Origin: a virus
Taxonomy: Duplodnaviria > Heunggongvirae > Uroviricota > Caudoviricetes
Virus record (IMG/VR): IMGVR_UViG_3300009285_000507
Span: 32,749-96,748 of that record
Direction: 5' to 3' (one strand)
Length of the DNA stretch: 64,000 bases
Part shown: in pieces, positions 2,526-57,785 of the stretch
Layout: each line of letters opens with the position of its first letter
Numbering within the stretch: position 1 is the stretch's first letter
Position numbers and translations under genes: made by a program
The notes under the pieces: generated by a model
Told to the model about the DNA's origin: nothing
What the model saw: the letters and a program-made list of their open reading frames with translations, nothing else
Database searches by the model: none

Positions 2526-2765
2526 TTAATAAGTATTACTACCTTTACGTGTATAAGAAAACAGTTGCTTTAACCGTTCTTCCTTCAATTTGCAACCACT
2601 TATTGCATCAAGGATATCATAATATAGAGCAAAGTATGCACGACCATACTGATTGACTGTGAACCTACAGAGCACTCTATGCATCCAATCATTGACAGCT
2701 ATAGGAACAAAGAAGATAACTTTTAGGATAAAGTTAGCCACCGTAGTCTCCTGTGAGTACGACAT
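2526..2765 (-). CDS. hypothetical small protein (79 aa)
   Basis: ORF in the same orientation as its neighbours; overlaps the next ORF by about 30 nt. Confidence 0.3.
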   Translation of the reverse strand: MSYSQETTVANFILKVIFFVPIAVNDWMHRVLCRFTVNQYGRAYFALYYDILDAISGCKLKEERLKQLFSYTRKGSNTY

Positions 2766-4576: not shown

Positions 4577-4615
4577 GTGGTTATCTCCTTGAAGTCTAGA
4601 TAACCAAGTGTATAA

Positions 4616-4969
4616 CTAAGGTGTCTTATGATGCTCTTTGTCGTGGCACTCAACGCAGAGTACCTCGAGCGCAGCAGGATTGCACAATATCTCCTTGAAT
4701 ATATGATCAATAACAGCATCCCAGTTGCATATCCCTTTGGTATGGTGCACGTTTATCTTAACTTCTTTGCCTTTGGCAACTGACCCCTTCTTTGAACAAC
4801 GCTGACATGTGTTGTGCTCACGCTTAACTGCACTTGCTCTTTCCCTGCTGCGGAGCCACAGCTGACGGAGCGCGGCGCGGACACGTGAACGTGGTGTCGT
4901 TGGTAGTTTCTTACCCATTAGCTTTCTCCTTGGCAACCTGTTCCTCCATCTTCCTAATGCAACATCCAC
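4616..4969 (-). CDS. HNH endonuclease
   Basis: CQRCSKKG...VHHTKGICNWDAVIDH...CVECHDKEHH gives paired Cys plus HH/N/H spacing typical of phage HNH nucleases. The true start may be an internal Met. Confidence 0.7.
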   Translation of the reverse strand: MDVALGRWRNRLPRRKLMGKKLPTTPRSRVRAALRQLWLRSRERASAVKREHNTCQRCSKKGSVAKGKEVKINVHHTKGICNWDAVIDHIFKEILCNPAALEVLCVECHDKEHHKTP

Positions 4970-9426: not shown

Positions 9427-9445
9427 AAACAGTTCCTTTTAAATG

Positions 9446-10285: not shown

Positions 10286-10792
10286 CTAAGGTTCAAGTAC
10301 GACTTTAAATCTAACCAACGCCGCTTCAAGAGCAATCATCCCTTTGTTACCGAAGTAGGGGATCTTAGCCAGCTCTGCTCTCCCCAGTTTAACTGCATCA
10401 CCAATTGTGGCAATCCCTGACTTCATCAAACGTGACTTGTTCTGAGCATTAATATCAACAGCTGTAATGGGTGTAACCATAACATCAATCTCACCCTGCT
10501 CATTAGGAACGCTCTCCATAATGGCAATCTTCTGCCGCAATGAACTAACCTCTTCCTGGAGCTTCTCGTAGTTCTCCAGAACTGCTAGGCGTTCCTTAAT
10601 ACGCGTCTCAACACTGTTCATGCGCTCGCCACTACGCTCGCTAAGCATGACACTGCTACCAAGCTTCATCTGATGTTCCTTGAAGTACCCAGAGTTTCGC
10701 TGACTCAGAAGCCCTAGGTACATAAGCATTTCTGCTACATTAAGACCAACCAGCTTCTCAATGTCCATCTTGAACTCATAGTGAAATTTCAT
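10286..10792 (-). CDS. hypothetical protein (168 aa), first gene of minus-strand operon
   Basis: ORF starting 20 nt downstream of a TACAAT -10 element on the minus strand; coiled-coil-like middle section. Confidence 0.5.
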   Translation of the reverse strand: MKFHYEFKMDIEKLVGLNVAEMLMYLGLLSQRNSGYFKEHQMKLGSSVMLSERSGERMNSVETRIKERLAVLENYEKLQEEVSSLRQKIAIMESVPNEQGEIDVMVTPITAVDINAQNKSRLMKSGIATIGDAVKLGRAELAKIPYFGNKGMIALEAALVRFKVVLEP

Positions 10793-15031: not shown

Positions 15032-16081
15032 ATGGCAGAAGAAAGTTATGAGGACATTTTTGGTTCAAGTGATGAGGTGGAGGAGAAGCCAGCTCCTAAG
15101 GCAGTTAAGAAAGCTGCTCCGGTAAAGGCTGCTCCTAAGGAAGAAGTTGTTGAAGAAGAGGAGGAAGAGCAGGATGCTTTTGTCGCTGCAGCTACAAAGA
15201 AGCCAGCTGCTCCTGCACCTAAGGCTAAGCCTGTGGTGTCTGATGATGTAGAGGATCTGAACTTCCTTGGCGCACAGACTAACGAGGCACATGATCTGTC
15301 CGCTGGCCAGGGTCCTTTGTACAAGTTCATGCAGTGGGTTGAGCCAGATCCTAAGGCTGCTATGGGTTCGTTTCAGAATCTAGGAGGTTTCTTTCTGCCT
15401 GAGGAACAGTTCCCCTTCGGCTTTACTCCATCACGTAAGCTCAATAAGATCACGTTCGACAATGGTAGCAGTCAGGTTGGTCTAGGCTTCCCGAAGATTA
15501 TGGTGTCAATCATTGGCTACCGTCTTGACTGGTTCTCAAAGGGTGGGGACAAGCGCACCTTCTACAAGAGCTACGACGAGGGTATCAAGGATGCTGGTAA
15601 GAAGAATCTCCGTGGTCGTACCCGCTATGTCGTTCTTGTTAAGAACGAGGATCTGTGGAAGTATGGTCCTTTGATGATCACTGTATCAGGCATTAAGGGT
15701 CGTACACTGCAGTCGGCTGTGAGTAGCTATGACACAAATCTTCGTCGTACACTTGAGCGCAAGTTTAGCCGCAAGTTTGCACCATACTGTTTCTGGTGCC
15801 CACTGAAGCCAGGTGAGCGTGTCAAGATCTCTGAGGAGTACAACAAGTATGCAACCTCACCGGCATTGGCATTGCCTGAGAAGTTTGACGCTGTGGAGAT
15901 TGGTAAGAAAGCATTTGTTGGCAAGGAAGTAATTGAGGCTTGTGAGGGTTATTGGGATGAGGTTCAGGAGTGGTCCAAGGCTAGTACAAGCGGTGACCAT
16001 GGCGAGCCACAGATGGCCCTTGCTGAAGAGGTTGTAAAGGAAGAAGCACCCAAGAAGCTTGAAGAGTTCTTTGAGGAATAA
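15032..16081 (+). CDS. DNA-binding protein candidate with AKP-rich N-terminus and acidic aromatic C-tail (possible SSB-like)
   Basis: N-terminal KPAPKAVKKAAPVKAAPKEE histone-H1-like low complexity. C-terminus EEAPKKLEEFFEE resembles the acidic tails of phage SSBs. Sits among recombination genes. Confidence 0.35.
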   Translation: MAEESYEDIFGSSDEVEEKPAPKAVKKAAPVKAAPKEEVVEEEEEEQDAFVAAATKKPAAPAPKAKPVVSDDVEDLNFLGAQTNEAHDLSAGQGPLYKFMQWVEPDPKAAMGSFQNLGGFFLPEEQFPFGFTPSRKLNKITFDNGSSQVGLGFPKIMVSIIGYRLDWFSKGGDKRTFYKSYDEGIKDAGKKNLRGRTRYVVLVKNEDLWKYGPLMITVSGIKGRTLQSAVSSYDTNLRRTLERKFSRKFAPYCFWCPLKPGERVKISEEYNKYATSPALALPEKFDAVEIGKKAFVGKEVIEACEGYWDEVQEWSKASTSGDHGEPQMALAEEVVKEEAPKKLEEFFEE

Positions 16082-16111: not shown

Positions 16112-16399
16112 ATGGCAGAAAATGTTCAGAAGCGTACATTAGCAGACGCAGTTGCAGAGAAGCTAAGTGCAGACAAGTCTCAGACTCTGGCGGTTATTGA
16201 TTGCTTCATGGAACTTATGATGGAGCATCTAAAAGAAGGCAACACCCTGGAGTTCCGTAACTTTGGTGTATTCAAAGTAAAGAAGTATGAGGCTCGTAAG
16301 GGTCGTAACCCCAAGACTGGTGAATCAGTTGAGATCCCAGCACGTTCAAAGGTTTCATTCCGTCCAGGTAAAGTCATGAAAGAGATGTTCACCAAGTAA
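16112..16399 (+). CDS. HU/IHF-family histone-like DNA-binding protein
   Basis: 95 aa. RNFGVFKVKKYEARKGRNPKTGESVEIPARSKVSFRPGK matches the HU arm (GRNPxTGExxxIPA). Confidence 0.85.
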   Translation: MAENVQKRTLADAVAEKLSADKSQTLAVIDCFMELMMEHLKEGNTLEFRNFGVFKVKKYEARKGRNPKTGESVEIPARSKVSFRPGKVMKEMFTK

Positions 16400-16408: not shown

Positions 16409-17407
16409 ATGGCAAAGAAGAGTGCTGACACTATTAGTAAGAGTGGGGCTGATATCTACAAGAAGATGGCTGCTAAGTACCCATCCCGTCTACAGTGCAG
16501 ACGTATTCCTTTGACGGACAAGGCACTGAATGATGGCTTCGGTGGTGGTTACCCAATGGCCAAGCAGGTTATGTTATACAGCCGTGAGGGTGTTGGTAAA
16601 ACAAACGTAGCCCTTGCCATCTGTAAGGCATATTGTGACGCTGGTTATGCTGTGGTCTACATGGACTTCGAGAACTCTCTAGTTGAGTCATTGATTGAGA
16701 ATTTCGGTCTTACTCAGTATGAGGGTACCCTGTTCTTTCTTCACCAGGATGTCCATACTTACACGGACTTCCAGAACATGGCAGATGCATATCTGGACAT
16801 GGAGAATCTTGGACTCATTGTTATTGATAGCGAATCTGACATTGTACCGGATCAGGTTTGCGACGGTGACATCCAGGATATCCAGCCAGGTTTGAAGTCA
16901 CGGCTGACATCAAATATTCAGATGAAGTACAACAGTCAGTGGCGTAGTCGTGACATTGGTATCCTGTGGATCCAGCAGATGCGGGCCAAGTTTAACTTTG
17001 GCTTCGCTCCTCCTGGGGCTCGTACAGAGGAAGCAGCTGGGGCAAAGTCACTGAAGTTCGCTCTTGATGTTCAGGTAGAACTACGTGTTAAGAAGCAGCT
17101 ATCACACGCAGATACAACTGTGTATGGTGCAGACATTTCATTCATCTTTGACAAGAACAAGACGGCACCACGTAAGAAGGTTGAGTCAACTATTATCTAT
17201 GGTCATGGCTTTGATCCACTTGCGTCACTGACAGCTGCACTGACTGAGTTCGGGTACTTGAAGCAGGACGAAAAGCTTTACGAGCTGCACTGCTTGCTTG
17301 AAGACAAGATCATTAAGTTTAAGAGTAGGACTGCTTTGTACAAGTACTTTAATGACAACATGAACAAGATTCTAGATCTGCTGAAAGAGAAGCACGGAGT
17401 AGAGTAG
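16409..17407 (+). CDS. RecA/UvsX-family recombinase
   Basis: GGGYPMAKQVMLYSREGVGKT gives the Walker A in RecA context. VYMDFENSL parallels RecA AFIDAEHAL. Length 332 aa. Confidence 0.6.
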   Translation: MAKKSADTISKSGADIYKKMAAKYPSRLQCRRIPLTDKALNDGFGGGYPMAKQVMLYSREGVGKTNVALAICKAYCDAGYAVVYMDFENSLVESLIENFGLTQYEGTLFFLHQDVHTYTDFQNMADAYLDMENLGLIVIDSESDIVPDQVCDGDIQDIQPGLKSRLTSNIQMKYNSQWRSRDIGILWIQQMRAKFNFGFAPPGARTEEAAGAKSLKFALDVQVELRVKKQLSHADTTVYGADISFIFDKNKTAPRKKVESTIIYGHGFDPLASLTAALTEFGYLKQDEKLYELHCLLEDKIIKFKSRTALYKYFNDNMNKILDLLKEKHGVE

Positions 17408-18471
17408 TGCTTAAAGTATTCATCAAGGACTTTCAAATCATCGGTCAGACCAGGCTTGATATAGATGGTCTGACCTTTCTGGTTGGTTCTGGCGATAACG
17501 GTAAGTCCTCAGTTGTAAGAGCTATGCAGTATGGGATATACAACAAGCTCGGTGATGACTTCATTAGGCAGGGTGTTAACGGTTGCAGCGTAGCACTAAA
17601 GTTTAATGATGACTTTAAGTTCGCTTGGAAGAAGTCTAGGGGTAAGGGTGGAGAGTACCTTCTTCCAAGCGGTGAATACGGAAAGCTTGGGAAGTCTGAT
17701 TTTGAGGGTGTTGTTGAGGAAGGACTGCTCCCTCTAACCACAAGTGTGGGTGATTTCTACCTTAACTTCTGGAACCAGATGGAGCAGTTCCTTGTTGTAA
17801 ATCGCCCAGACACGCATAAGTTCGAGATACTCTCCAGTATATTCTCTGGAGAGAAATACCAGGAGATGCTCAAAAAGGTTGGGGATGATCTAAAGGCAGT
17901 TCAGAAAGCATGCTCTAATGAGTATATGAAGAAGGAGATGCTATCAGGGTATGTAGCTTCAAGCACTGATAAGCTGCAGTTGTTCTCTGATATTGATAGC
18001 ATAAAAAATGAGGTAAGCAAGCTCTCTATGTCTGTAGACAGACTTGACACAATGAGTAGCTTATTGGAAAGACACACTACTACTGAGGGTAAGCTTTCCT
18101 CAATGACTGACACGGCTGCAACATGTACAAAGATAGTTAGTTTCTTTGTTAAGAAGCAGGGTGTTGTAGTTGAGGATATTGACGAGTTAAAGAATATTGA
18201 TTCAAAGTATAGATTGGTACTTAAAGCCAGGGATCTTAGAAACTCCATTAAAAGGCTGGAGGAATACTGTAGTGCTGCGAGTGTGAAGCTGGTTGTGAGC
18301 AAGTCAGATGTGGATAAATGTGCACAGATGGAATCATTACTACAACTAAGAAAAGTAAAGCTAGTCACTATATCAGCGATGTCTTCCAAGTTAGAGGATA
18401 CTTTGTTTAAACTCAAAGAGGAAGAAGCTGTTAAGAGCGAATTTGACACATGTCCATTCTGCGGAAAATAG
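17407..18471 (+). CDS. sbcC: SbcC/Rad50-like ATPase, N-terminal half ending at a CxxC zinc hook
   Basis: FLVGSGDNGKSSVVRAM is a Walker A in the Rad50/SbcC N-lobe context. A long coiled-coil region follows. The ORF terminates with CPFCGK, the hook motif. Confidence 0.6.
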   Translation: MLKVFIKDFQIIGQTRLDIDGLTFLVGSGDNGKSSVVRAMQYGIYNKLGDDFIRQGVNGCSVALKFNDDFKFAWKKSRGKGGEYLLPSGEYGKLGKSDFEGVVEEGLLPLTTSVGDFYLNFWNQMEQFLVVNRPDTHKFEILSSIFSGEKYQEMLKKVGDDLKAVQKACSNEYMKKEMLSGYVASSTDKLQLFSDIDSIKNEVSKLSMSVDRLDTMSSLLERHTTTEGKLSSMTDTAATCTKIVSFFVKKQGVVVEDIDELKNIDSKYRLVLKARDLRNSIKRLEEYCSAASVKLVVSKSDVDKCAQMESLLQLRKVKLVTISAMSSKLEDTLFKLKEEEAVKSEFDTCPFCGK

Positions 18472-18750: not shown

Positions 18751-19142
18751 TGGTTGTCAGAAGAAAGTTCGAGTCACTTAAGGACGCAATAGCAAGTGTA
18801 AAGTGTCCTTCCCAGAAGTTTGTTAAGCTAAACATCTGGTGCAGTAACAAGGGCCTTGATCTATTTCTTACCAAGACTGACGATGGGATGTGTGTTGTGC
18901 AGGTGTTAACTCGTGAGGAGTTCAAGCGGATCATCTTCATGAAGAAGATAAACATGCTTGACTATGATTTAAACACTACTATAACAAGTATTGCTGACAA
19001 CATAGAGATGAACTACAGCTATTACATTAGGGTTGTTAGCAGGGCCAAGGCTGACTTTATAGCCTCAACTGCTTTCCCTGTGGTTGTGTTCTTCAGTGGA
19101 AATGTTGCGAAGTACAGTGAGGGCTCAATCTATGTTGAGTAA
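18750..19142 (+). CDS. hypothetical protein (130 aa) inserted between SbcC halves
   Basis: Translationally coupled to the upstream gene (TAATGG). Not coiled-coil, no motif. Confidence 0.4.
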   Translation: MVVRRKFESLKDAIASVKCPSQKFVKLNIWCSNKGLDLFLTKTDDGMCVVQVLTREEFKRIIFMKKINMLDYDLNTTITSIADNIEMNYSYYIRVVSRAKADFIASTAFPVVVFFSGNVAKYSEGSIYVE

Positions 19143-19791
19143 GCGTCTCCAGGCTATATCTGATTCAGTGAACAGATTGGATGGGGAGAGAGATTCCTTA
19201 GTTAAGTCGATTGAATCATTCGTTGAGTCCATTGCTGAATGTGACAGCAACATAAGCACACTTGAGACAGACCTTAAAGTACTTGGCACAAGCATGGAGA
19301 TACTAAAAGAGTTCATCAGTATCCTATCAACATATGGTTTAAGCCAGTACACTGAGTTGATTAACCGTGGTCTAAAGACTATCTTTGTAGACAGAAACTA
19401 CGAGTTCAAGATCGAGATTGACAACAGGGGTAGAACAAAGAAAGCAACCATGCTTTCACGAAGGGAAATTGATGGGGAGTGGTGTGACTGGAGAAACATT
19501 GACCACGCGAACGGTGGAACACTACGTGCTATAATTGACCTAATAACAAGGGTTTATCTAATTAGCTCAATGGGCCGTAGGCGGTTCATAGTGTTTGATG
19601 AGTCACTGTCTCAGATGTCTGAGGAGTACGTTCCCAATGTAATTAGCTTCCTTGAGGTTCTCTCAAAGGAGATGGGTTTCGACATACTGTTCCTTAGCCA
19701 GGATCCAAGATACATAGGGCATGCTAACAGAGCGTACAAGATGTCCTGGGGTAACGCAGTTCTACTAGAGACAGAGGCTAGCAATGGATAA
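19084..19791 (+). CDS. sbcC: SbcC/Rad50-like ATPase, C-terminal half
   Basis: Coiled-coil. GGTLRAII is signature-like. Walker B IVFDESLSQM. H-loop LSQDPRYIGHANRAY. The in-frame ATG at 19132 (MLSKRL) is a plausible true start. Confidence 0.6.
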   Translation: MCSSVEMLRSTVRAQSMLSKRLQAISDSVNRLDGERDSLVKSIESFVESIAECDSNISTLETDLKVLGTSMEILKEFISILSTYGLSQYTELINRGLKTIFVDRNYEFKIEIDNRGRTKKATMLSRREIDGEWCDWRNIDHANGGTLRAIIDLITRVYLISSMGRRRFIVFDESLSQMSEEYVPNVISFLEVLSKEMGFDILFLSQDPRYIGHANRAYKMSWGNAVLLETEASNG

Positions 19792-20701
19792 AATAGCCAT
19801 TATTGGTGACCTTCATATAGATCAGAAAGCCCCTGCATCGCGCAAGGATGACTATACACGAACGTTGTTCTCAAAGCTGGACCAAGTATACTCCATAGCT
19901 CATACGAACAACTGCAGTGCCATTGTGTGCACTGGTGACGTATTCAACAGGAAGACCATATCCATCCCATTCCTTGTTGAGGTTATTGATTTCTTCAAGA
20001 AACATGCAGACGAGGATAAAGATCTACTATTCTATTCTGTGGCTGGTAATCACGACCTATACTATGGGAGAGCAGACTCCCTATTTAAGACACCACTAGG
20101 TGTTCTGTTCTCCTCAGGTGCCATTAAACACGGTGTCATCACCACAACTTATGGTAGTACGATATCCTGTATTGACTATGACAGAGCACCACAAGACAAG
20201 ATTACTCTTGAATCAGACATTACAGCTATGCACAAGTACATGCATAGTGACTACAAGAGTGATGAAGATTACGTTGATTACAAAGCCATAGAGGGTTGTG
20301 GTGTTATAGCGTGTGGTCATGATCACAATAGCTATGAACCAGTAAGTCATAAAGGTAAGATACTTGTTCGTCCTGGGTCTCTCATGAGGTGCACCAGCAG
20401 TATTGAGGACCAGCAGAGGGAGATAGTAGTTGATATTATTGGGGTTGAAAATAAGGGATCCAGAGTAGTATCATATATAGACAGGGTTAGATTAGATATT
20501 GAGCCTTGCGAGAACATATACTCAGAGCAGAAGTTGGCAAGCAAGGAGTACAAGAAGGGTCTTATCTCGTTCATTGAGGATATGAAGAAGGCACCCAGCA
20601 AGAGGGGTGACTCCGTTAAGATACTGAAGGATCTGTGCAAAGGAAACAAGGTTCTATATGATACCTGTTCTGAGTATCTGAGAACATACAGTATCATATA
20701 A
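19784..20701 (+). CDS. sbcD: SbcD/Mre11 nuclease (calcineurin-like phosphoesterase)
   Basis: Motifs IIGDLHID, TGDVFN, GNHD and GHDH in canonical order. Length 305 aa. Confidence 0.85.
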   Translation: MDKIAIIGDLHIDQKAPASRKDDYTRTLFSKLDQVYSIAHTNNCSAIVCTGDVFNRKTISIPFLVEVIDFFKKHADEDKDLLFYSVAGNHDLYYGRADSLFKTPLGVLFSSGAIKHGVITTTYGSTISCIDYDRAPQDKITLESDITAMHKYMHSDYKSDEDYVDYKAIEGCGVIACGHDHNSYEPVSHKGKILVRPGSLMRCTSSIEDQQREIVVDIIGVENKGSRVVSYIDRVRLDIEPCENIYSEQKLASKEYKKGLISFIEDMKKAPSKRGDSVKILKDLCKGNKVLYDTCSEYLRTYSII

Positions 20702-20712
20702 CAGGAGAGGAC

Positions 20713-21396
20713 ATGGTTTCAGATGAAGAAGCCAAGAAGTACTGGGGGAAATCTCGTCCAGTACAGGATTTCAATAGTAACTTTAATGAGGCACACTACT
20801 GGGTGGAGTACCTGAAAGCTAGGAAGAACAGGTGCATCAGGGTTGGTGTGGATAAGCTTGATGGGTTCTCAACAGACTCAAGAGACTACCCATTGTTCAT
20901 TATACCCATGTTCTTTATGAATGAGCATATTGGTTTTCAGCTGCGTTCAATAAAGACGGACAGGAGAATGATAGTAAAGAGCTGTGGCTTCATCTGTTAC
21001 ACACCTGACAGGTTGAGAGCTACACTCATGAAAGGAAATGTAGCAAGAATTCCTTACATGGTTCTGTCAGAAGGTCCTATGGATTCTGAGGTTATAGAGG
21101 AGCAGGTTACGTACTCTATGGCTTGTTGTGGTTCACTGCCATCCAGGAATCTTCTGAAGGCACTTTCAGTGTTCACAAGTAAGATTATTTTTATCCCTGA
21201 TAATGATGAAACTGGTAGAGAGCAGGGGGAAAGATTTGAAAAGTATGTTAGTAAGGTGGTAGAATACAGTAGGGTTGGGGTTATCTACCCTGATAAAAGA
21301 GTTAAGGACTTTGGTGACTTGGCACGTAGAAAGTATATTGGAATACGAAGAGAGCTACTAGACAGTCTTCAAACTAAACTGGAGGTATTGATATGA
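20713..21396 (+). CDS. DnaG-type primase catalytic (TOPRIM) domain protein
   Basis: MVLSEGPMDS supplies the TOPRIM Glu. FIPDNDETGREQGERF supplies the DxD. Length 227 aa. No Zn finger and no helicase domain. Confidence 0.6.
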   Translation: MVSDEEAKKYWGKSRPVQDFNSNFNEAHYWVEYLKARKNRCIRVGVDKLDGFSTDSRDYPLFIIPMFFMNEHIGFQLRSIKTDRRMIVKSCGFICYTPDRLRATLMKGNVARIPYMVLSEGPMDSEVIEEQVTYSMACCGSLPSRNLLKALSVFTSKIIFIPDNDETGREQGERFEKYVSKVVEYSRVGVIYPDKRVKDFGDLARRKYIGIRRELLDSLQTKLEVLI

Positions 21397-21641: not shown

Positions 21642-22706
21642 GTGAAGTTAGCCGACAGGATTCAACCTCTAGCTTTCAGTAGTATTCGTGGCCAGTCAAA
21701 TGCCATAGGATTACTGAAAGCTATTCTGTCTGATCCGTCGTCTGCTCCACGGAGTATCATTATTCACGGTGGTCCTGGCTATGGCAAGACCACCATTGCT
21801 AGGATATTTGCAAGAGCACTGAACTGCACAAATGGAACATCAAACGACTGTTGTTCTGTGTGTGAGTCTTGCTCAAGTAGTATTGACAGTGCACCATATT
21901 ACAAGGACTTTAACCCCATGTTTAGCGTTAATGCTTTGGCTAACATGGTGTCAGGTGCGCCTGAAGGATCTAAGAGGGTTATAGTTATAGACTGTCTTAA
22001 TAGATCTGTCAACCAGGATCACGTAGTTCGTATGCTGGATGAGTACTACTCAAAGGTATTCTTTGTGTTCACATCCAATGATATTAGTTGTTTGCATGAC
22101 CGTATAAGAGCAAGGTCAGTTGAGATATGTCTTGACAAGCCCACTCTGAAAGACGTGTGTCTAGTTCTAAAGGGGGCTAATGTTACAGACATCACAGGGG
22201 TTGCTCCTAGTAACGATCTTATCTTCAAGATTGCCTGTGCATCGAATGGGGACTACAATAAGGCCATAACCTCACTATGCATGTTCACGGTTACAGGAGA
22301 CATAGCACAACTGAGAAATAGCTTGACTGATAATGAGCACCTTATTGTTGATCTGATGTCCAAGTATGAGGACGAGGTTGAATATAGTAATGCACTAGCA
22401 CACTTGACCGCGTTATCCCTTGACATGCTGCGTGATAACTTCTTTAGCGTTGTACTAAAGATGGTCAACAACAAGGTTGGGGTTGGTTCACAACCTGATT
22501 ATATCAAGTCATTTGTGGAATCACACAATAAAATTATATTCGATTTAGTTAAGTTCAGTGGCAAGGACTGGGTTGTAAATTCATTCGCTAACCATATGTC
22601 TTTTGTTAGTGTTATGTGGGCCTTGCGTGAGCTACTTCTGTCATCAAAGTCTACGAGCAGTTCAGTAGTTAGCATGGATAAGTTTAAGAAAAAGATAGAA
22701 AGCTAG
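21642..22706 (+). CDS. AAA+ clamp-loader subunit (DnaX gamma/tau-like)
   Basis: HGGPGYGKTTIARIFARALNC followed by the zinc module CCSVCESC, as in DnaX. VIVIDCL is the Walker B. SNDISCLHDRIRARS is SRC-like. GTG start. Confidence 0.7.
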   Translation: MKLADRIQPLAFSSIRGQSNAIGLLKAILSDPSSAPRSIIIHGGPGYGKTTIARIFARALNCTNGTSNDCCSVCESCSSSIDSAPYYKDFNPMFSVNALANMVSGAPEGSKRVIVIDCLNRSVNQDHVVRMLDEYYSKVFFVFTSNDISCLHDRIRARSVEICLDKPTLKDVCLVLKGANVTDITGVAPSNDLIFKIACASNGDYNKAITSLCMFTVTGDIAQLRNSLTDNEHLIVDLMSKYEDEVEYSNALAHLTALSLDMLRDNFFSVVLKMVNNKVGVGSQPDYIKSFVESHNKIIFDLVKFSGKDWVVNSFANHMSFVSVMWALRELLLSSKSTSSSVVSMDKFKKKIES

Positions 22707-22724
22707 CGTTTATTGTGGTATAAT
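22696..22724 (+). promoter_or_regulatory. candidate promoter TAGAAA-N17-TGGTATAAT
   Basis: Same bipartite arrangement as at 10848; 31 nt upstream of the ATG at 22756. Confidence 0.5.
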
Positions 22725-22755
22725 ATAGGTATACTACAGGTGTGGGGTATACTTA

Positions 22756-23208
22756 ATGATAAGTGTAGATTCATTTATCTCCTATGCTAGGGGAGATAAA
22801 TTTGATGAGAAAGATTTTTATCTAAATCTAAACAAGTTGGTCAGTGTTGTCATTAATCGCTACTTTAGGTATTACCAAGACAGAGAAGAGCTGGAAGCAA
22901 TAGCAAACCTGGAAGTTATCAAACTGCTAAAAGATGAAGCGTTTGATGAGAGTAACAAAGTCCTAAACTATTTATTCACAGGCATTCGTAACAGACTAAC
23001 AAATTTCCTATATAATCTAAATACTAAGTTTCCATTGATAGTTGAGGATGAAGCAACCCTTGATGTATCAGATGAGACTTTTGACTTCCATGATGTTGCT
23101 CTTCCAAGTGATGAGTACAACGATTCATGGATAGACAAGAAATTTGGTAAAAACATAGATCACTATAAAGGTATCTATTTGTTTAGATTCTTCCAGAGGA
23201 ATGGGTGA
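22756..23208 (+). CDS. sigma factor, region-2-like (gp55-like candidate)
   Basis: VVINRYFRYYQDREELEAIANLEVIKLLKDEAFDESNKVLNYLFTGIRNRLTNFL follows the sigma-70 region 2.1-2.4 pattern. Length 150 aa. Confidence 0.5.
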   Translation: MISVDSFISYARGDKFDEKDFYLNLNKLVSVVINRYFRYYQDREELEAIANLEVIKLLKDEAFDESNKVLNYLFTGIRNRLTNFLYNLNTKFPLIVEDEATLDVSDETFDFHDVALPSDEYNDSWIDKKFGKNIDHYKGIYLFRFFQRNG

Positions 23209-23647
23209 TATGGCAAAGAAAGCCAAGAAGGAAGTTATACAAAAGATTGATAAGGTTGACTTTATAGAGAGCTACGGGGATACAGTTGACTTCATGACTG
23301 CTCGTTACCTGTCATCACGTAGAAAGACAAAGACATTCCTTGAGCTATACGTTCTTCTTGGAGCTGACTTCTTTACGTTCATGTCAATCTTCGCTGGTAA
23401 ATCAATTAAGTTCCCTAAGCTTAGCGTTGTTCGTAAGATGCAGCGTGATCTTAATGTATGCTTTGACTATGGCAAGATGACACTGGAGGACATGACAAAA
23501 AAGTATGGCTTGCGCAAGGCGGCTGTATTGAGCATAAAGAGAAAGATTGATAGAAACTTAGCATCATATGACATTCTAGATGAGGAGATCGAAGATGGCA
23601 GATTCCAAGAGTCCTATAGAACTTACAAAAAATTTACTAGGTCCTGA
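23201..23647 (+). CDS. sigma region-4-like HTH protein (possible second half of split sigma or gp33-like partner)
   Basis: TLEDMTKKYGLRKAAVLSIKRKIDRNL resembles the sigma region 4.2 HTH. Overlaps the previous gene by 8 nt. Confidence 0.4.
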   Translation: MGDMAKKAKKEVIQKIDKVDFIESYGDTVDFMTARYLSSRRKTKTFLELYVLLGADFFTFMSIFAGKSIKFPKLSVVRKMQRDLNVCFDYGKMTLEDMTKKYGLRKAAVLSIKRKIDRNLASYDILDEEIEDGRFQESYRTYKKFTRS

Positions 23648-24140
23648 TTTCTTTGAGACCATCACTAAGATGGCGGCATCACAGGGCACAGATGTAAACA
23701 GGGAAGTAGAGAAGAGCACTGGTCAACTCAACCTGGCACTGTCGCACATCATCATCAGCAGACTACCGATCCTCCAGAAGATGATTGACTTCCTAAACAG
23801 GACAGAGACCCGTCTATTTAGTGATGAGGTGTTTGAGCTCAGTACCATGAAGTTCTTCAATGCTGAAGGTGAGCAGATTGATGTGTTCAATAGTGAGGGG
23901 CGCAAGCTTGACACAATCTATGATCTAAAGATGCTACGTGACTTCTATGAGAAGGTTAACAAGGACTTCCTCAACATCCTCGAGTTCATACGTAAGTACA
24001 CCAGCAAGATTCCATTAGAGTCTGGTAATGAGCTTACAGAGCGCGAGAAGGATATCATGCGTGTTCTGTCACAGCTATCAGATGAAGAGCTTGCTGAGAT
24101 CAGCCGCATTGTTTATGAAAGGCAGTCAAAGAAGAAATGA
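23595..24140 (+). CDS. putative terminase small subunit
   Basis: About 180-aa protein immediately upstream of and overlapping terL. Assignment is positional only. Confidence 0.3.
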   Translation: MADSKSPIELTKNLLGPDFFETITKMAASQGTDVNREVEKSTGQLNLALSHIIISRLPILQKMIDFLNRTETRLFSDEVFELSTMKFFNAEGEQIDVFNSEGRKLDTIYDLKMLRDFYEKVNKDFLNILEFIRKYTSKIPLESGNELTEREKDIMRVLSQLSDEELAEISRIVYERQSKKK

Positions 24141-26098
24141 GTGACAAGTTATCCGATGCCCTCTCTGGCCTTTTAAAGGTAGAGAGGAAGCATCGTGAGG
24201 TCAAGGATGACCCTGAGCAGATACGAGAAGTAGTTCCTATTGAGGACTGGCTATCCCCGTACTATATTGGTAGCCATGCAGATAAGCTCTATCCTTTCTG
24301 GCAGGAACACATGAGGGAGTTCAGAAAATCCAAATGTTCTGAGCTGCTCATCGACGGCAGTTTGGGTGCAGGAAAAAGTACTTTTGGTTATATTGTGTTT
24401 TTACGAAGGATATACGAGCTCTCTTGTTACAAGTACCCCCAAAGACTTTTTAAGGTGCCAGATTCATCACGACTATTCTTTGGGTACATAGCCGTGACAT
24501 CTGCTCAGACGAAGCTATCAGGGTTCTCTGACTTGATGGCAATCATTGATGATGCTCCATACTTCAGAAATGACTACAAGAGAAACATGGACATAACATC
24601 AGCCGCACAGTTCCCCAATGGTGTTAACCTTGTTCATGGTTCTGACTCTGTATCAGTTCTAGGTACAAACCTTCTAGGGTGCTTTTGCGATGAGGTAAAC
24701 TTCTGGAAGGAAGGTGGCGGTGGTAAAGCCGGTGATCTTGAAAAGGCCCGTCGTATCTATAGGGACACCACTGACAGAAGACGTAACCGTTTCATGAAGC
24801 ATGGTGTAGATCCTGGTATATCAATTCTTGTATCTTCGTCAACTAATGATTCATCATTCACAGATGACCGCAGAGAAAAAGCTAAGCCTGGAACATGTTA
24901 CTTTGTCAACGTAAAGATCTGGGATGTAAAGCCTAATGATTACTCCAAAGAAATGTTCTGCGTGTTTGCTGGTGATGAAGACAGAGTTCCAGCTGTAATT
25001 GAGGATACAAAAAACCTTAATGATATCCTTGTGTCCTACGGCTATGATACTATGGCTGAGGATACTAAGTCACTGGCAGATAATGTAGATAACCTTGAGG
25101 GTAGTCTTAAGCATAAGTTCCTATTCATTCCAGTTGACTTCAAGAATGACTTCCTTGATGATCCAGTAAGATCACTGCAGAACATTGGTGGTGTGTCTGT
25201 AACATCTGTGTCAAAGTTGTTCACGGATATCAAGGCATTCAATAATTGTATTGATCCTATCCGTGAGCACCCTTTCATAGCCCAGGAGATTGTTGTATCT
25301 ACCTCTGATTACAAAGAGATAGAGGGTTACTTTATACCAGAGAAGATCTGTAACTGCCCAGACAACGCAGCTAACTCCAAGGCTAAGATCTATTCACCGA
25401 AGTATTTCCCAGGTGCTAAGAGAGTTATCCATGTTGACTTGTCTGCTACTGGGGATCCAACTGGTATAGCTATGGGTTGTGTGTCAAACTTTAAACAAGT
25501 TAGAGGTGGTGACTTTTCACTACCTGTTATACACATTGACTTTATGCTACGTATTCAACCACCAAAAGCACCTGCAAGAATTGACTATGAGAAGATTAAG
25601 TCCTTCATTATGGCTCTCAAGGAGAAGTTTAACTTTGAGATCAACAGCGTATCGTTCGACCAAAACCAATCTGAAAGCATGCTGCAGTTCTTTGAGAAGG
25701 CCATAGGTGATAGCAAGCGGATCAGTATGGATAGAAGTGACACAGTGTGGATGGATGCATGCGAACTTATGTATTCCACTAGAATTTCCTTTTACTTATA
25801 TAGTATATTCAGGACTGAGTGGTTTAACTTAATCCACGACAGGACCCGTGGCGACGTTGATCACCCTATTAAAAATGGGGATGGGTCAGACGGAACCAAG
25901 GACGTAAGTGACGCAGTAGTTGGTGTTATAACAAATCTACTTCAAAGGGAGATGCTAGAAAGATCTTCTGTTGACAATCTAATGGGCATAAGTAAACTTG
26001 GGGACACAAGTGACGCATGGGTATCTCCGAGCATTGGTATTAACCCGTTTCAAAGTAAGGACAAAGCTAGGGCTAAGGCCAGTAGCTTATTTTTCTAG
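24137..26098 (+). CDS. terL: terminase large subunit
   Basis: Walker A LIDGSLGAGKST. Walker B region GCFCDEVNFW. C-terminal nuclease-like VIHVDLSATGDPTGIAMG. Length 653 aa. Confidence 0.75.
   Translation: MSDKLSDALSGLLKVERKHREVKDDPEQIREVVPIEDWLSPYYIGSHADKLYPFWQEHMREFRKSKCSELLIDGSLGAGKSTFGYIVFLRRIYELSCYKYPQRLFKVPDSSRLFFGYIAVTSAQTKLSGFSDLMAIIDDAPYFRNDYKRNMDITSAAQFPNGVNLVHGSDSVSVLGTNLLGCFCDEVNFWKEGGGGKAGDLEKARRIYRDTTDRRRNRFMKHGVDPGISILVSSSTNDSSFTDDRREKAKPGTCYFVNVKIWDVKPNDYSKEMFCVFAGDEDRVPAVIEDTKNLNDILVSYGYDTMAEDTKSLADNVDNLEGSLKHKFLFIPVDFKNDFLDDPVRSLQNIGGVSVTSVSKLFTDIKAFNNCIDPIREHPFIAQEIVVSTSDYKEIEGYFIPEKICNCPDNAANSKAKIYSPKYFPGAKRVIHVDLSATGDPTGIAMGCVSNFKQVRGGDFSLPVIHIDFMLRIQPPKAPARIDYEKIKSFIMALKEKFNFEINSVSFDQNQSESMLQFFEKAIGDSKRISMDRSDTVWMDACELMYSTRISFYLYSIFRTEWFNLIHDRTRGDVDHPIKNGDGSDGTKDVSDAVVGVITNLLQREMLERSSVDNLMGISKLGDTSDAWVSPSIGINPFQSKDKARAKASSLFF
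25790..25806 (+). promoter_or_regulatory. late-promoter-like motif inside terL (CCTTTTACTTATATAGT)
   Basis: Near-identical to the intergenic motif at 56771 (CCTTTTTACTTATACATT). Confidence 0.3.
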
Positions 26099-26109: not shown

Positions 26110-26418
26110 ATGATCACTCCAATTTCTCCTATAGTAGAACAGTCAGCAACTCTAGCTGCTGATAACCCACTGACTAGCTTACATGTAATCAATAAGTGTC
26201 AACAGTATCAGGTGTCATGTGTTGCGGGCACCGTTGTTGTTCACTTTGTTTATTCAACTGACAGTGGTGTTACCTATACTGGTGAGGCACTTCCCTCACT
26301 TACACTCACCGCCGGTCAGACATACTCAAGGAACAATGGTTTCTCAGATTACCCTTGTTCTCTTTACATAGACGGAGCTGCTGGAAGCACTTATACAGTT
26401 CTTATTGAGTACATCTAG
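26110..26418 (+). CDS. hypothetical protein (102 aa)
   Basis: ORF with AGGTAAAAGATG start context, directly after terL. Confidence 0.45.
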   Translation: MITPISPIVEQSATLAADNPLTSLHVINKCQQYQVSCVAGTVVVHFVYSTDSGVTYTGEALPSLTLTAGQTYSRNNGFSDYPCSLYIDGAAGSTYTVLIEYI

Positions 26419-32256: not shown

Positions 32257-32270
32257 ATTACTTATATACT
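32257..32270 (+). promoter_or_regulatory. late-promoter-like motif ATTACTTATATACT
   Basis: Recurring motif family; 32 nt upstream of the ATG at 32302. Confidence 0.35.
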
Positions 32271-32703: not shown

Positions 32704-35016
32704 ATGCATGTGCGTAAGATTCTAATCATTGGCGATTCTCCGGCTCAACACACAGGGTTCTCAAACCAGATCAGACTAATTGCAAACGGGTTCATTAACA
32801 ATGGTAGCGAGGTTGTGTCCATTGGGTTCAATGCAAAGGACCAAGGTATCTCAATGTTCCAGCCACATTGGAAGCTATATGGTGTGAAGGGTACAAGTGA
32901 GTACCACGAGATCTATCACATCATTCTTGTTGAGCAGCCAGATGTAATTATTTCAGTTGCTGAGTTTAGCTGGACAATGGATATTGCAAAGCTGCCTGAG
33001 AAGTGGCGTAACCGTTGTATTCACTGGGTGGCGGTTGACTGCGAGCCAATCAATGAGCCTGCAGTTCATAGCCAGATCTGGTTCCGTAAGCATCTTGTAT
33101 TCATGGCTGATTATGGCAAGAGAATATATAGCACGTATTTAGATAAACATCCTAATGAGCACACTGTTTCAACTATTTATCTGGGTGTTGATACTGAAGT
33201 GTTCAAGCCTGTAGCAGACAAGAAGGAGCTTAAGAAGAAGGGTGGCTTCGAGGACAAGTTTGTAGCACTATTTGTTTCGCGTAACCAGTGGAGAAAGCGT
33301 CCTGATCTTCTTATTCGTGCGTGGGCTAAGTTCGTAAAAGACAAGAAGGATGCAGTTCTTATTATGCACACTGACGTGAGTACTGTGTCAACTAATCTTC
33401 AGACAGGGTACAACCTTCCTTACCTGATTGAACGTTTTGGTGTGAAGGACTCATGTGGTCTATCAAGTAAGCTGCAGTGCTCCACAGAAGAACTGGTCAG
33501 CCTAATGAACATGGCAGATGTACATTGTTTGCCATCAGCGTCAGAAGGATTCGGAGTAACACTGATTGAGACAATGGCATGTGGTGTTGTCAATATCACT
33601 ACCAAGAGCTCAACTATGCCTGAGATCATTGACAACCATGGAGTTCTTATTGATCCAATTGCCTTTGACATCCAGCCAGACCTTGGTGTTGATCGTCCAT
33701 TGATGGACACGGACAAAGCAGCTGAAGCACTCGAGGTGATGTACCAGACATGGAAGAACAATGTTTCCATTGAAGAAGAAAAGACTGCGATGCGTGAGTA
33801 CATCATTGCAAAGTATAGTGCACCAGTAATTCAGAAGCAGTGGGTTGATTTGGTTGAGAATATAGTTTGTGTAGAAAATGAGCCAAGAGGGTGTTTTATT
33901 GGTAGTACGGCTCGTAGCATTCTTATCCAGGGTAATGATAGCCCAACATTCTCTTACGGAGTAGTGTGCAGGGCACTAGCTGAGGAGTTCAGCAAACGTG
34001 GGTATGTTGTAGAGCACACTAACTTCACAGTGGATCACTGGAACCAGAACAAGGAGCTAGCACGTACAGCATGCTACAATAGCTATGCACACCGTAACTT
34101 TGATTACCACCTGAGAGTATCCTATCCACTAGACAGTAAGCTTATGGTTGGTCGGACAAATGTAAATCTTGTTCCTTATGAATGGCAGAACCTTCCTAAG
34201 TCGTGGGTCCAGGAATCATGGAACCCAGGTTTGCACTATGTTATGCCTTTGTCCAAGCATGAGGAGTTTGTATTCACTGGCTCAGGTGTTCCAAAAGAAA
34301 AGGTTAAAGGCATGGGTCTGGGGTACAACCAGTCAGTGTTCAACACTGATGCCACGCCACATGATTTCTCTGACATCAAGAAAGATACATTTGTAATCCT
34401 TATGCTTGGTAGTCTAATGTCAGTTGATAGCCGCAAGGGTGTTAGCTATGTTCTGGATGCATATACAAAAGCATTTAGCAAGTCAGACAATGTTGCCCTT
34501 GTTATCAAGACACTGCAGGCTCCTAACATGCCTAACTTTGTGCAGCAGGTTCGGCAGCACATGCAGGGCAAGGAGAATTATCCGCGCATTACTGTGATGG
34601 ATTCATTCATGCCACAGGAAGCTATCGCTGGGTTGTACAAGAGGGCCAATGTAGTAGTTAGTCCCAACCGTGGAGAAGGGTTCAACCTATGCGCTCTTGA
34701 GGCTATGGCTGTAGGTACACCAGCTATTATCACAGCCGGTGGTGGTAGTATGGATTTCACTTCAAAGGATACAAGTTACTTGGTAACCTGCAGCACAGTT
34801 GCTTGTGGAGCTCCAGCATACATTGATGCAAAGGATACAGACAATGGCTGGTTCAATCTTCAGCCAAGTATGGACTCACTTGTAGCTCATATGCGTAACT
34901 CGTATGATGATCGTGAGACACTGAAGAAGAAGTCAGAGGCTGGTATTAAGAAGGCTCAGATGTTTACATGGGGTGCTGCAGTCAGAGCCTTCGAACTTAT
35001 GGTTGGTGCTGCATAA
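32704..35016 (+). CDS. tandem GT4-family (GT-B fold) glycosyltransferase, 770 aa
   Basis: Two complete units, each ending in the GT4 E-x7-E region (SEGFGVTLIETMACGV and GEGFNLCALEAMAVGTP). Each has a preceding Rossmann-like half (FVALFVSRNQWRKRPDLL and FVILMLGSLMSVDSRKG). Confidence 0.7.
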   Translation: MHVRKILIIGDSPAQHTGFSNQIRLIANGFINNGSEVVSIGFNAKDQGISMFQPHWKLYGVKGTSEYHEIYHIILVEQPDVIISVAEFSWTMDIAKLPEKWRNRCIHWVAVDCEPINEPAVHSQIWFRKHLVFMADYGKRIYSTYLDKHPNEHTVSTIYLGVDTEVFKPVADKKELKKKGGFEDKFVALFVSRNQWRKRPDLLIRAWAKFVKDKKDAVLIMHTDVSTVSTNLQTGYNLPYLIERFGVKDSCGLSSKLQCSTEELVSLMNMADVHCLPSASEGFGVTLIETMACGVVNITTKSSTMPEIIDNHGVLIDPIAFDIQPDLGVDRPLMDTDKAAEALEVMYQTWKNNVSIEEEKTAMREYIIAKYSAPVIQKQWVDLVENIVCVENEPRGCFIGSTARSILIQGNDSPTFSYGVVCRALAEEFSKRGYVVEHTNFTVDHWNQNKELARTACYNSYAHRNFDYHLRVSYPLDSKLMVGRTNVNLVPYEWQNLPKSWVQESWNPGLHYVMPLSKHEEFVFTGSGVPKEKVKGMGLGYNQSVFNTDATPHDFSDIKKDTFVILMLGSLMSVDSRKGVSYVLDAYTKAFSKSDNVALVIKTLQAPNMPNFVQQVRQHMQGKENYPRITVMDSFMPQEAIAGLYKRANVVVSPNRGEGFNLCALEAMAVGTPAIITAGGGSMDFTSKDTSYLVTCSTVACGAPAYIDAKDTDNGWFNLQPSMDSLVAHMRNSYDDRETLKKKSEAGIKKAQMFTWGAAVRAFELMVGAA

Positions 35017-35020: not shown

Positions 35021-35034
35021 TTAGTTATACATTG
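35021..35034 (+). promoter_or_regulatory. late-promoter-like motif TTAGTTATACATTG
   Basis: Variant of the recurring motif, 25 nt upstream of the ATG at 35059. Confidence 0.3.
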
Positions 35035-36840: not shown

Positions 36841-36856
36841 CTTACTTATACATATG
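36841..36856 (+). promoter_or_regulatory. late-promoter-like motif CTTACTTATACATATG
   Basis: Immediately after the terminator; 27 nt upstream of the ATG at 36883. Confidence 0.4.
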
Positions 36857-41431: not shown

Positions 41432-41446
41432 TTACTTATATACCTA
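41432..41446 (+). promoter_or_regulatory. late-promoter-like motif ATTACTTATATACCT
   Basis: About 107 nt upstream of the capsid gene ATG. Confidence 0.35.
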
Positions 41447-44981: not shown

Positions 44982-45326
44982 ATGGCTCAGCCACAGGTTC
45001 AAGTAGTTCCCATTGACCAGCTCCAGAGTCTTCTGGGGCATGGTCAGCAGCAGTTCCCTCAGGATATAATGGATCAGGATATGGCAATGATGGGTGGTGC
45101 AGATGGTGTGCAGCCTATCATCATTGTTGTCAATGTATCCAACAGCACAGCATCAATCAAGGATCCAGCCATGCTGCAGATGGCTCAGGCTATGGGAATG
45201 GATGCTATGCCAGCTGCTGTAGATGTGGTTGATGATGAGAGCTGTGGTGAGGATCAAGGTATCCCAGTTAACATCGGTGGGGTCATGGTAACTGTTCCAA
45301 GTGATCTAGGTCTAAAGACGGTTTAG
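44982..45326 (+). CDS. hypothetical Met/Gln-rich protein (114 aa)
   Basis: ORF with start directly after the previous stop. Confidence 0.4.
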   Translation: MAQPQVQVVPIDQLQSLLGHGQQQFPQDIMDQDMAMMGGADGVQPIIIVVNVSNSTASIKDPAMLQMAQAMGMDAMPAAVDVVDDESCGEDQGIPVNIGGVMVTVPSDLGLKTV

Positions 45327-45336
45327 TTATATACTT
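45324..45336 (+). promoter_or_regulatory. late-promoter-like motif variant TAGTTATATACTT
   Basis: 30 nt upstream of the ATG at 45367. Confidence 0.25.
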
Positions 45337-55333: not shown

Positions 55334-55392
55334 TAACTATTTTCTTATACACTACTGCGTGACATCTAAGGCTAGTACCTATTAAATTTAGA

Positions 55393-56729: not shown

Positions 56730-56746
56730 CAACACTGAGTACACAG

Positions 56747-56778
56747 GGGAGGTGCCCATCAAGGCATCTCCCTTTTTA
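56747..56778 (+). terminator. rho-independent terminator
   Basis: GGGAGGTGCC-CATCAA-GGCATCTCCC (one G-U pair) followed by TTTTT. Confidence 0.65.
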
Positions 56779-56790
56779 CTTATACATTTA
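56776..56790 (+). promoter_or_regulatory. late-promoter-like motif TTACTTATACATTTA
   Basis: Directly after the terminator. Near-identical 35-nt block (TTTTACTTATACATT-ACA-CATAAC-AGTA-GAGG) repeated at 57766. Confidence 0.45.
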
Positions 56791-57770: not shown

Positions 57771-57785
57771 TTACTTATACATTAT
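57771..57785 (+). promoter_or_regulatory. late-promoter-like motif TTACTTATACATTAT
   Basis: Second copy of the 35-nt block seen at 56768. 26 nt upstream of the ATG at 57811. Confidence 0.45.

Follow-up and report, generated by a model that had tools for sequence, protein, structure and literature searches.

To our knowledge, T4 was long regarded as the only phage that uses a sliding clamp to couple its late transcription to replication. In phage Mu, the late activator MuC, a member of the Mor/C family, binds the beta clamp of the host, late transcription by MuC in vitro requires the clamp as well as a nick, and suppressors of MuC toxicity map to dnaX (Ho and Harshey, PNAS 2026, PMC12867686); the logic of the T4 and Mu systems was described there as analogous and their proteins as "nothing alike" (PMC12867686). 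T4-superfamily phages without gp33 exist, and an unrelated accessory factor has been proposed for them (Johnson et al., PMC4621102). Here we analyze a stretch of 64,000 nucleotides (nt) from an uncultivated Caudoviricetes phage (the window; IMG/VR record IMGVR_UViG_3300009285_000507, positions 32,749 to 96,748), in which genes for a DnaX-like protein (ORF1), a sigma region-2 protein (ORF2) and a Mor/C-type helix-turn-helix (HTH) protein (ORF3) follow one another at positions 21,642 to 23,647 and, as judged from synteny across distant relatives, constitute a conserved module. This module combines components of the T4 and Mu versions of late-transcription control, and on balance we favor the view that it governs late transcription in an uncultivated, very distant member of the T4 superfamily.

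Like the T4 late system, the window phage has candidate late promoters that consist of a single element without a -35 region, a second small protein that would complete the factor, a clamp-loader gene in the genome, and head genes of the gp20, gp21, gp23 and gp13 type. In contrast to T4, the second component is a Mor/C-type HTH protein instead of gp33, the loader is of the bacterial DnaX (gamma) type instead of gp44/62, no gp45 was found, the polymerase belongs to family A and not to family B, the LDFL clamp-binding tail is absent, and the promoter motif reads TTACTTATAYA where T4 has TATAAATA. Also, loader and sigma genes adjoin each other here, whereas in T4 some 8 kb separate gene 55 from genes 44, 62 and 45.

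Mor and MuC of Mu belong to the same HTH family as ORF3 and act at promoters with a -10-like element and no -35, and in both phages there is a genetic link to DnaX and the beta-type clamp system, through dnaX suppressors in Mu and through a DnaX-like neighbor here. However, the Mu proteins act together with host sigma70, whereas the Mor-type domain is here paired or fused with a sigma2 domain of its own, and such a dedicated partner argues for the Mor-type protein working with something other than host sigma70. The Mu motifs Qx[DE][LM]F (N-terminal) and QPDLF (C-terminal) and the conserved upstream binding site are absent here, and Mu encodes no clamp loader. PhiM9 (Sinorhizobium) and P10VF (Rhizobium) resemble the window phage in their T4-type structural genes and in a late-transcription set that is incomplete or replaced, but they retain a recognizable gp55 and T4-type replication genes, and neither a Mor-type partner nor a DnaX linkage has been reported for them (PMC4621102). 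In the literature searched, no other paper was found that treats phage Mor together with gp55, and neither a fusion of sigma2 with Mor nor a linkage between DnaX and sigma genes was found described.

The DnaX-sigma2-Mor module

The module and the genes that follow it are arranged as listed.

21642..22706 (+): ORF1, gamma-type DnaX-like AAA+ clamp-loader subunit, 354 amino acids (aa)
22696..22724 (+): candidate host sigma70-type promoter in the ORF1-ORF2 gap; TAGAAA, 17 nt, TATAAT, with extended -10 TGgTATAAT
22756..23208 (+): ORF2, sigma region-2 protein without region 4 (gp55-like architecture)
23210..23647 (+): ORF3, Mor/C-family HTH protein, 145 aa; alternative start 23201, 148 aa
23595..24140 (+): ORF4, acidic, 181 aa (186 aa from 23580), positionally conserved between the Mor-like gene and the large terminase (TerL) gene
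24137..26098 (+): TerL, downstream end of the module, conserved in all related loci

Taken alone, ORF2 reached 16.9 bits (E 0.0056) against Pfam Sigma70_r2 (PF04542; cut-off 24), word-indexed homologue searches with ORF2 and ORF3 returned only the query proteins themselves, and single-sequence phmmer searches of both against the PDB gave only noise. An exhaustive HMMER scan of 1.84 billion representative sequences revealed 62 homologues of ORF2, 42 of which match Sigma70_r2 at E<=0.01 (best 2.3e-8) and 20-25 of which match phage sigma-factor PHROGs. When the family profile was compared with the PDB, sigma factors accounted for 13 of the 14 matches (best 5.8e-4), and region 2 of the extracytoplasmic function (ECF) sigma factors sigmaE and sigmaW was matched. 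An AlphaFold model calculated from the family alignment, with a predicted local distance difference test (pLDDT) value above 94 over residues 1-91, has the three-helix sigma2 fold; a single-sequence model (pLDDT 45) was unusable. T4 gp55 is nominally the top structural neighbor of the model, and Foldseek comparisons with the PDB and with viral models led to the same kind of match, with E-values that are weak for such a short helical domain. At the sequence level, hhalign paired the ORF2 family (A1) with T4 gp55 in the correct register at a probability of 7.4% and E 0.0048, and phmmer with T4 gp55 as query found no match in the window. An HTH or region 4 is absent from ORF2, the last 60 residues being modeled as a low-confidence linker and two short helices; within the family, this C-terminal part comprises a variable linker and then a conserved hydrophobic C-terminal helix (in ORF2, …HYKGIYLFRFFQRNG). 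The sigma-70 region 2 character that a sequence-only reading of this DNA had proposed for ORF2 is borne out by the family-level matches and by the fold, and there is good support for ORF2 being a sigma region-2 protein with the architecture of T4 gp55. Such a protein would be expected to bind host core RNA polymerase and to direct promoter-specific initiation.

The extreme C-terminus of ORF2 (23164-23205) reads GIYLFRFFQRNG and represents a hydrophobic motif of the split sigma2-like proteins, most of which end in …CL(I/V)(I/L)WKxxE(F/Y)xL, the subgroup of the window (P0001, P0004, P0010, P0032) having H(Y/F)xG(I/L)xL(F/L)(R/Q/K)(F/E)(F/Y). This motif sits where gp55 bears its clamp-binding epitope (SLDFLYEAND in T4), and its docking target might be the Mor-like partner or a clamp.

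For ORF3, translation probably starts at the ATG at 23210, which is preceded by GAGGA about 10 nt upstream, lies 2 nt past the ORF2 stop and agrees with the public gene call. The open reading frame of 148 aa from 23201 in the earlier reading does exist, but with the start at 23210 favored, its overlap with ORF2 is doubtful. ORF3 scored 20.1 bits (E 6.5e-4) against Pfam Mor (PF08765; cut-off 24.9). In a family compiled from ORFs at the syntenic position in related loci and from C-terminal halves of fusion proteins, Pfam Mor is matched by six of seven members (best 3.9e-6), and a marginal Sigma70_r4_2 match occurs in one of the seven. The top PDB match of the family profile is Mor of Mu (1rr7, E 0.0017) over residues 52-118, that is, the linker strand and the HTH. 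The HTH seen in the sequence-only reading therefore stands, but it is of the Mor/C family and not region-4.2-like, and no similarity to T4 gp33, the comparison suggested there, was found for ORF3. Family comparisons thus give good support to ORF3 as a Mor/C-type HTH protein.

Four relatives (P0046, P0054, P0053 and P0017) carry a sigma2 domain followed by a Mor-type domain in one polypeptide of 247-288 aa, and ORF3 aligns directly to the C-terminal halves of these fusions in phmmer searches. Because relatives encode both parts as a single polypeptide, the view that ORF2 and ORF3 are two halves of one factor is well supported by sequence, the fusions being its strongest support; the split factor postulated earlier is thereby upheld, its second half being corrected to a Mor-like one. 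Like ECF (group 4) sigma factors, the fused relatives (247-291 aa) join a sigma2 domain through a linker to a C-terminal HTH, but in this clade the C-terminal HTH is of the Mor type, the domains are separate in most lineages and a -35 element was not found. One factor here joins gp55-like and Mor/C-type domains, with a genetic tie to a DnaX-type loader across a clade of uncultivated phages. Even without any involvement of a clamp, a sigma factor in which a Mor-type HTH replaces region 4, and which occurs in split and fused versions, would be an undescribed architecture with a candidate promoter defined.

ORF1 exceeds the curated cut-off for Pfam DNA_pol3_delta2 (31.8 bits, cut-off 27; E 1.7e-7), matches PHROG clamp-loader families (3e-18) and in phmmer finds E. 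coli DnaX (6.5e-9) with a better value than T4 gp44 (2.6e-7); orthologues in related phages match E. coli DnaX down to 4.5e-32. It has kept the P-loop GPGYGKTT and an SRC-type Arg finger, IRARS (invariant R158 in alignment A3), and its zinc module CCSVCESC, with the spacing C-x8-C-x2-C-x2-C, aligns to the Cys ligands of E. coli DnaX, so that the earlier assignment as a DnaX-like clamp loader, made from the P-loop and the zinc module, holds. ORF1 thus shares with E. coli DnaX gamma the AAA+ fold, the P-loop, the Cys spacing, the Arg finger and a length that corresponds to gamma domains I-III alone. It differs in lacking tau domains IV-V and, as discussed below, the Walker-B Glu and the sensor-2 Arg, in having neither a delta or delta-prime partner nor a clamp that could be found, and in that the phage gene invariably adjoins a gene for a predicted late transcription factor.

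Related loci were gathered by exact-protein look-up and by scans with the sigma2 core motif in viral, metagenome and genome collections (trimmed alignment A4); a locus scan with ORF1 as query gave no match. A DnaX-like gene lies 5' of the sigma2-like gene in all 15 distinct loci that have upstream sequence, the two being direct neighbors in 13 of them, with one or two ORFs inserted in L008 and L013. The Mor-like part is fused or encoded by the next gene in 13 of 14 loci, L019 having an inserted methyltransferase-like ORF, and downstream of the module a small acidic ORF and then TerL follow. Stop and start codons of module genes frequently overlap, protein identity between lineages amounts to about 25-40%, and the genes 5' of DnaX vary from locus to locus (primase, radical-SAM enzymes, ORFs without assignment, a TnpB element). 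Across seven lineages, the universally shared families are just the DnaX-like protein, the sigma2-like protein and TerL. In tblastn searches, TerL of the window matched annotated TerL of Vibrio and Stenotrophomonas phages at about 30% identity (2e-57). In the cultured Maribacter phage Molly, which has related TerL and capsid proteins, the module is absent from 32 kb that include both genes.

The phage genome of about 139.5 kb has been recovered repeatedly in metagenome assemblies, one record being labeled groundwater. No nucleotide-level relative of the window region was found among 50,697 phage records, and translated searches of this collection with ORF2, ORF3, P0046, P0003 and P0064, a clamp of relatives, gave no match; by these comparisons, the clade is without a cultured member in the collection. 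Among 185,579 species genomes, the sole match was L018 (SKHL01000030.1), a 92.6-kb contig binned to a metagenome-assembled genome of Limnochordia (Bacillota), which carries the complete DnaX-sigma2-Mor-TerL module and may be a mis-binned phage or a clue to the host of some members of the clade.

In the gap between ORF1 and ORF2, the extended -10 element may be part of a host-type promoter for ORF2 and ORF3; TGgTATAAT is a single consensus match, and such matches are not above chance in this region.

ORF4 gave no match in Pfam and PHROG searches. Its positional family has members in L003, L005, L006, L013-L015 and L018 and shows no similarity to T4 gp33; small terminase (TerS) is a positional guess for it, with no PHROG support. 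In four of these loci (L013:10950-11621, L014:10934-11569, L015:1657-2304, L018:10894-11598) the ORF is strongly acidic and has an N-terminal D(L/V)LD(M/I)L and a conserved C-terminal helix …DKL..LLS.(I/L)P.EKL…; the N-terminal part of these ORFs is missing from ORF4 of the window. Inteins, some with LAGLIDADG, interrupt the DnaX-like gene (in two lineages), the large terminase gene and the radical-SAM gene of relatives (L013:5306-8500, L019:16778-20113, L005:3408-7292, L013:11632-15006, L015:2446-7143), and in L013 an IS605 OrfB/TnpB-type gene (3833-4951) lies directly 5' of the DnaX-like gene.

A strand-consistent motif in front of late genes

The recurring ACTTATA(T/C)A motif upstream of structural genes, to which the sequence-only reading had drawn attention, is indeed overrepresented: ACTTATAYA occurs in seven copies, all on the plus strand, where 1.39 are expected, and only one of 100 shuffles reaches seven. 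The extended form TT(A/T)(C/G)TTATA(C/T)A (TTWSTTATAYA) occurs in 11 copies as compared to 0.45 expected, and none of 100 shuffles exceeds three. These copies and one of the core alone are located as follows.

2550..2560 (-): motif TTTCTTATACA, 5' of ORF 2513-2073
4609..4619 (-): motif TTAGTTATACA, 43 nt 5' of the amidase (endolysin) start at 4576
25792..25802 (+): motif TTACTTATATA, within the 3' end of TerL, 5' of ORF 26110
26389..26397 (+): motif core ACTTATACA, without TT, 44 nt 5' of ORF 26433
32258..32268 (+): motif TTACTTATATA, 44 nt 5' of ORF 32302, followed by the glycosyltransferase gene
35021..35031 (+): motif TTAGTTATACA, intergenic, 3' of the glycosyltransferase gene
36842..36852 (+): motif TTACTTATACA, right after a terminator-like hairpin, 41 nt 5' of ORF 36883 (portal operon)
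41432..41442 (+): motif TTACTTATATA, 121 nt 5' of the gp23-like major capsid gene
45323..45333 (+): motif TTAGTTATATA, 44 nt 5' of a 1338-aa ORF
55341..55351 (+): motif TTTCTTATACA, intergenic, 5' of ORF 55528
56776..56786 (+): motif TTACTTATACA, after a terminator-like hairpin, 34 nt 5' of ORF 56810
57771..57781 (+): motif TTACTTATACA, 40 nt 5' of ORF 57811

All copies of the extended motif are co-oriented with the local genes, commonly 32-44 nt 5' of a start codon. Those on the plus strand include copies in front of the portal operon, the gp23-like capsid gene, the glycosyltransferase region and the 1338-aa ORF, and one on the minus strand stands in front of the endolysin gene; the replication block contains none. 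Between -45 and -1 upstream of the 11-bp block, the 11 sites carry zero information, with no -35-like or other conserved element. By its distribution, a single-element, strand-consistent motif marks the late genes, and that it functions as a late promoter with T4-like single-element architecture is plausible. G+C-rich hairpins with T-runs (about 36808-36838 and 56746-56777, plus strand) lie directly 5' of two of the motifs, and this succession of terminator and promoter suggests insulated late transcription units.

The head genes of the late region were recognized in precomputed Pfam annotations.

37705-39567 (+): Portal_T4
39948-41420 (+): Peptidase_S77 prohead protease
41553-43034 (+): Gp23 major capsid
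43113-43838 (+): Phage_T4_gp13 neck protein

The closest cultured capsids, those of Listeria phage LIS04, Maribacter phage Molly and Bacillus phage SP-15, are about 27% identical. The replication genes of the window, with a family A polymerase and a DnaX-type loader, are not T4-type.

A possible clamp link and rival explanations

According to the mechanism that we propose, ORF2 and ORF3 would be produced from the replication-gene transcript and/or from the host-type extended -10 promoter just 5' of ORF2. ORF2 would bind host core RNA polymerase and recognize TT(A/T)(C/G)TTATA(C/T)A in front of the head, neck, tail and lysis genes, with ORF3 standing in for the region 4 or the gp33 of other systems, and we consider it probable that both together redirect the host polymerase to the motif. 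In a further step, put forward only tentatively, activation of the factor by a sliding clamp of the beta type, together with the DnaX-like protein, would couple late transcription to replication. This step is modeled on T4, where gp55 and gp33 work with gp45, and on Mu, where MuC works with host DnaN. Loading or recruiting the clamp would fall to the DnaX-like protein, transcription of the late genes would require DNA that is replicating and nicked, and the clamp would be that of the host, as in Mu, or be encoded in the remaining 55 kb or so of the genome. By analogy, a clamp link is plausible because MuC, a protein of the Mor/C family, needs the host beta clamp (PMC12867686), and T4-like regulatory logic is plausible because the head genes of the window are T4-type. 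If the clamp link were true, clamp-activated transcription would be widespread and evolutionarily connected, the Mor/C fold would be a general clamp-to-polymerase adaptor, and there would be a natural candidate for the gp33 substitute in T4-superfamily phages that lack gp33. A bolder version, which we regard as unlikely, has the T4 and Mu clamp-dependent systems connected by this clade. The Mor-type domain would be a clamp-tethering co-activator that replaced gp33; the window phage would have lost its own clamp and would carry a DnaX-like subunit deficient in hydrolysis, its module would capture the beta clamp and the loader of the host, late genes would fire only on replicating DNA, and the loader would serve transcription and not the family A polymerase.

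Several results weigh against the mechanism proposed here, the clamp step included. Neither the window nor the 10 kb on either side of it, which together make up the inspected sequence of about 84 of 139.5 kb, yielded a sliding clamp in Pfam annotations, in unfiltered phmmer searches (T4 gp45 and E. coli DnaN as queries) or with a hidden Markov model (HMM) of the clamp family A5 of relatives. Viral clamp loaders have been reported to be always accompanied by their cognate clamp (Kazlauskas et al., 2016, PMC4889955). Family A5, a divergent DnaN-like clamp of 398-432 aa encoded between SbcD and primase in relatives, is assigned as a clamp because 12 of its 21 members match Pfam DNA_pol3_beta (best 3.2e-6; one member matches the central domain); comparisons of its profile with the PDB and, by hhalign, with E. 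coli DnaN were not significant. In L019, L006 and L005 the clamp lies in the same gene block, accompanied by a radical-SAM gene. The window is collinear with such clamp-bearing loci, but here SbcD directly abuts the primase gene, and the A5 HMM found no match in the window. The sliding-clamp gene that the sequence-only reading had looked to find elsewhere in the genome, and whose absence it had named as a refutation, is thus missing from the inspected sequence, including its syntenic slot. The suggestion made there that the loader may serve transcription instead of replication is weakened by this and by the altered residues of ORF1 described below.

20701..20713 (+): junction between SbcD (end 20701) and primase (start 20713), the slot of the relatives' clamp, empty in the window

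Furthermore, clamp-binding motifs of the MuC type, the QL[SD]LF type and the T4 LDFL type occur in none of 65 sigma2-like or fused proteins and in none of six Mor-like proteins, and the corresponding regular expressions gave no matches above shuffles. ORF1 itself is altered: its Walker B motif (VIVIDC, residues ~117-118) reads D-C, Glu being replaced by Cys, and in sensor-2 (GDYNKA, residues ~203-208) the Arg of GxxR is replaced by Asn, whereas DE and GHxR are intact in the DnaX-like proteins of relatives (L003, L005, L006, L025). Since these catalytic residues are replaced and no clamp gene was found, the loader may be degenerating or have changed its role in this lineage. A delta, delta-prime or gp62-like partner of ORF1 was not seen in the inspected sequence. 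ORF2 and ORF3 each score below the Pfam cut-offs, the late-gene motif is not common to the loci of relatives, where only scattered intragenic copies occur in AT-rich loci, and related TerL genes are present in all loci, so that adjacency in the module may in part reflect genome collinearity within one clade.

Some other candidates for a clamp were rejected on sequence grounds. The ORFs of 349, 228 and 230 aa that start at 15032, 13592 and 12206, respectively, gave no Pfam, PHROG, gp45, DnaN or A5 signal, and a 402-aa ORF 5' of DnaX in L018 was ruled out by Pfam. The 349-aa ORF (15032-16081, plus strand) has a low-complexity N-terminus, acidic and rich in lysine, alanine and proline, which is unlike a clamp, and lies directly 5' of HU-like and RecA-like genes, a position that would suit a gene of the SSB or helicase-loader type.

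The main rival for the clamp step accepts ORF2 and ORF3 as a two-piece late sigma-like factor and takes ORF1 to be unrelated to transcription, being the last gene of the replication block, replicative or vestigial, and adjacent through collinearity. We give this explanation appreciable, though less than even, probability. Homologous TerL genes occur in all loci, several of which agree in the order of SbcD, primase and portal, the clamp of relatives is placed among the replication and recombination genes SbcD and primase and not beside the sigma-like gene, and a candidate promoter separates ORF1 from ORF2; the missing clamp, the missing clamp-binding motifs and the degenerate catalytic residues of ORF1 point in the same direction. 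However, collinearity does not readily account for an adjacency kept in 15 of 15 loci at 25-40% identity, with different genes 5' of DnaX and frequent stop/start overlaps, nor for phage Molly, in which 32 kb with the related TerL and capsid genes are devoid of the module. A replicative role for ORF1 also has to be reconciled with the polymerase. The sequence-only reading had argued from a Pol A that does not need a clamp, and a family A polymerase with a 3'-5' exonuclease (proofreading) domain is confirmed at 6806-8842 on the minus strand. This is the sole polymerase seen, and we know of no dependence of family A polymerases on a clamp loader. Finally, dependence on the beta clamp has been demonstrated for one member of the Mor/C family (PMC12867686).

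Two further explanations deny that ORF2 and ORF3 form one late factor. ORF3 could be an ordinary Mor/C activator that, like those of Mu, cooperates with the primary sigma factor of the host, and ORF2 could serve a different class of genes as a sigma- or anti-sigma-like protein in its own right; Mor and MuC do work with sigma70 (PMC12867686), and both types of protein are encoded as separate ORFs in most lineages. Against this stand the fusions in at least four lineages, the co-occurrence of the parts in 13 of 14 loci, the absence of a conserved upstream activator site at the late promoters and a motif unlike the -10 and -35 elements of sigma70, which make such an arrangement very improbable. 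Hardly credible at all is a role of ORF2 and ORF3 in DNA packaging as small-terminase-like HTH proteins: they are encoded directly 5' of the large terminase and an N-terminal HTH is common in small terminases, but ORF2 has the sigma2 fold and sigma-family signal, ORF3 is Mor-like, and the usual TerS position is filled by ORF4, so that this reading was ruled out by fold and family evidence. A late factor made of ORF2 and ORF3 remains our preferred reading.

Neighboring genes

In the recombination and replication genes 5' of the module, an SbcC-like nuclease ATPase is apparently split into an N-terminal ORF (17407-18471, 354 aa) and a C-terminal ORF (19084-19791, 219-235 aa), both on the plus strand, with two small ORFs of 87 and 130 aa between the halves; L019 is split likewise. 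SbcD (19784-20701) lies 3' of the C-terminal ORF. The primase is seemingly divided between two oppositely oriented genes some 11 kb from each other: an ORF with a DnaG-type CHC2 zinc ribbon (8802-9242, minus strand) adjoins the polymerase gene and a Toprim-domain ORF (20713-21396, plus strand) adjoins the clamp-loader gene. An HU/IHF-type DNA-binding protein of 95 aa (PF00216) is encoded at 16112-16399 on the plus strand, just 5' of the RecA-like gene.

In the late region, 3' of the motif at 32258, a protein of 770 aa with two glycosyltransferase domains (PHROG 2170, 5e-57) is encoded at 32704-35016 on the plus strand. Genes for tRNA Trp-CCA and Tyr-GTA (9445-9518 and 10014-10101, minus strand) occupy the interval between the early and replication blocks, which diverge. 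Beside them, a 168-aa ORF (10286-10792, minus strand) showed a weak match to PF03118 (RNA polymerase alpha C-terminal; E 0.0046, below the cut-off) and could encode a further protein directed at RNA polymerase, or the match could be due to chance. An RlaP-type nucleotidyltransferase (PF10127, 1e-24) is encoded at 5721-6461 on the minus strand and adjoins the polymerase gene.

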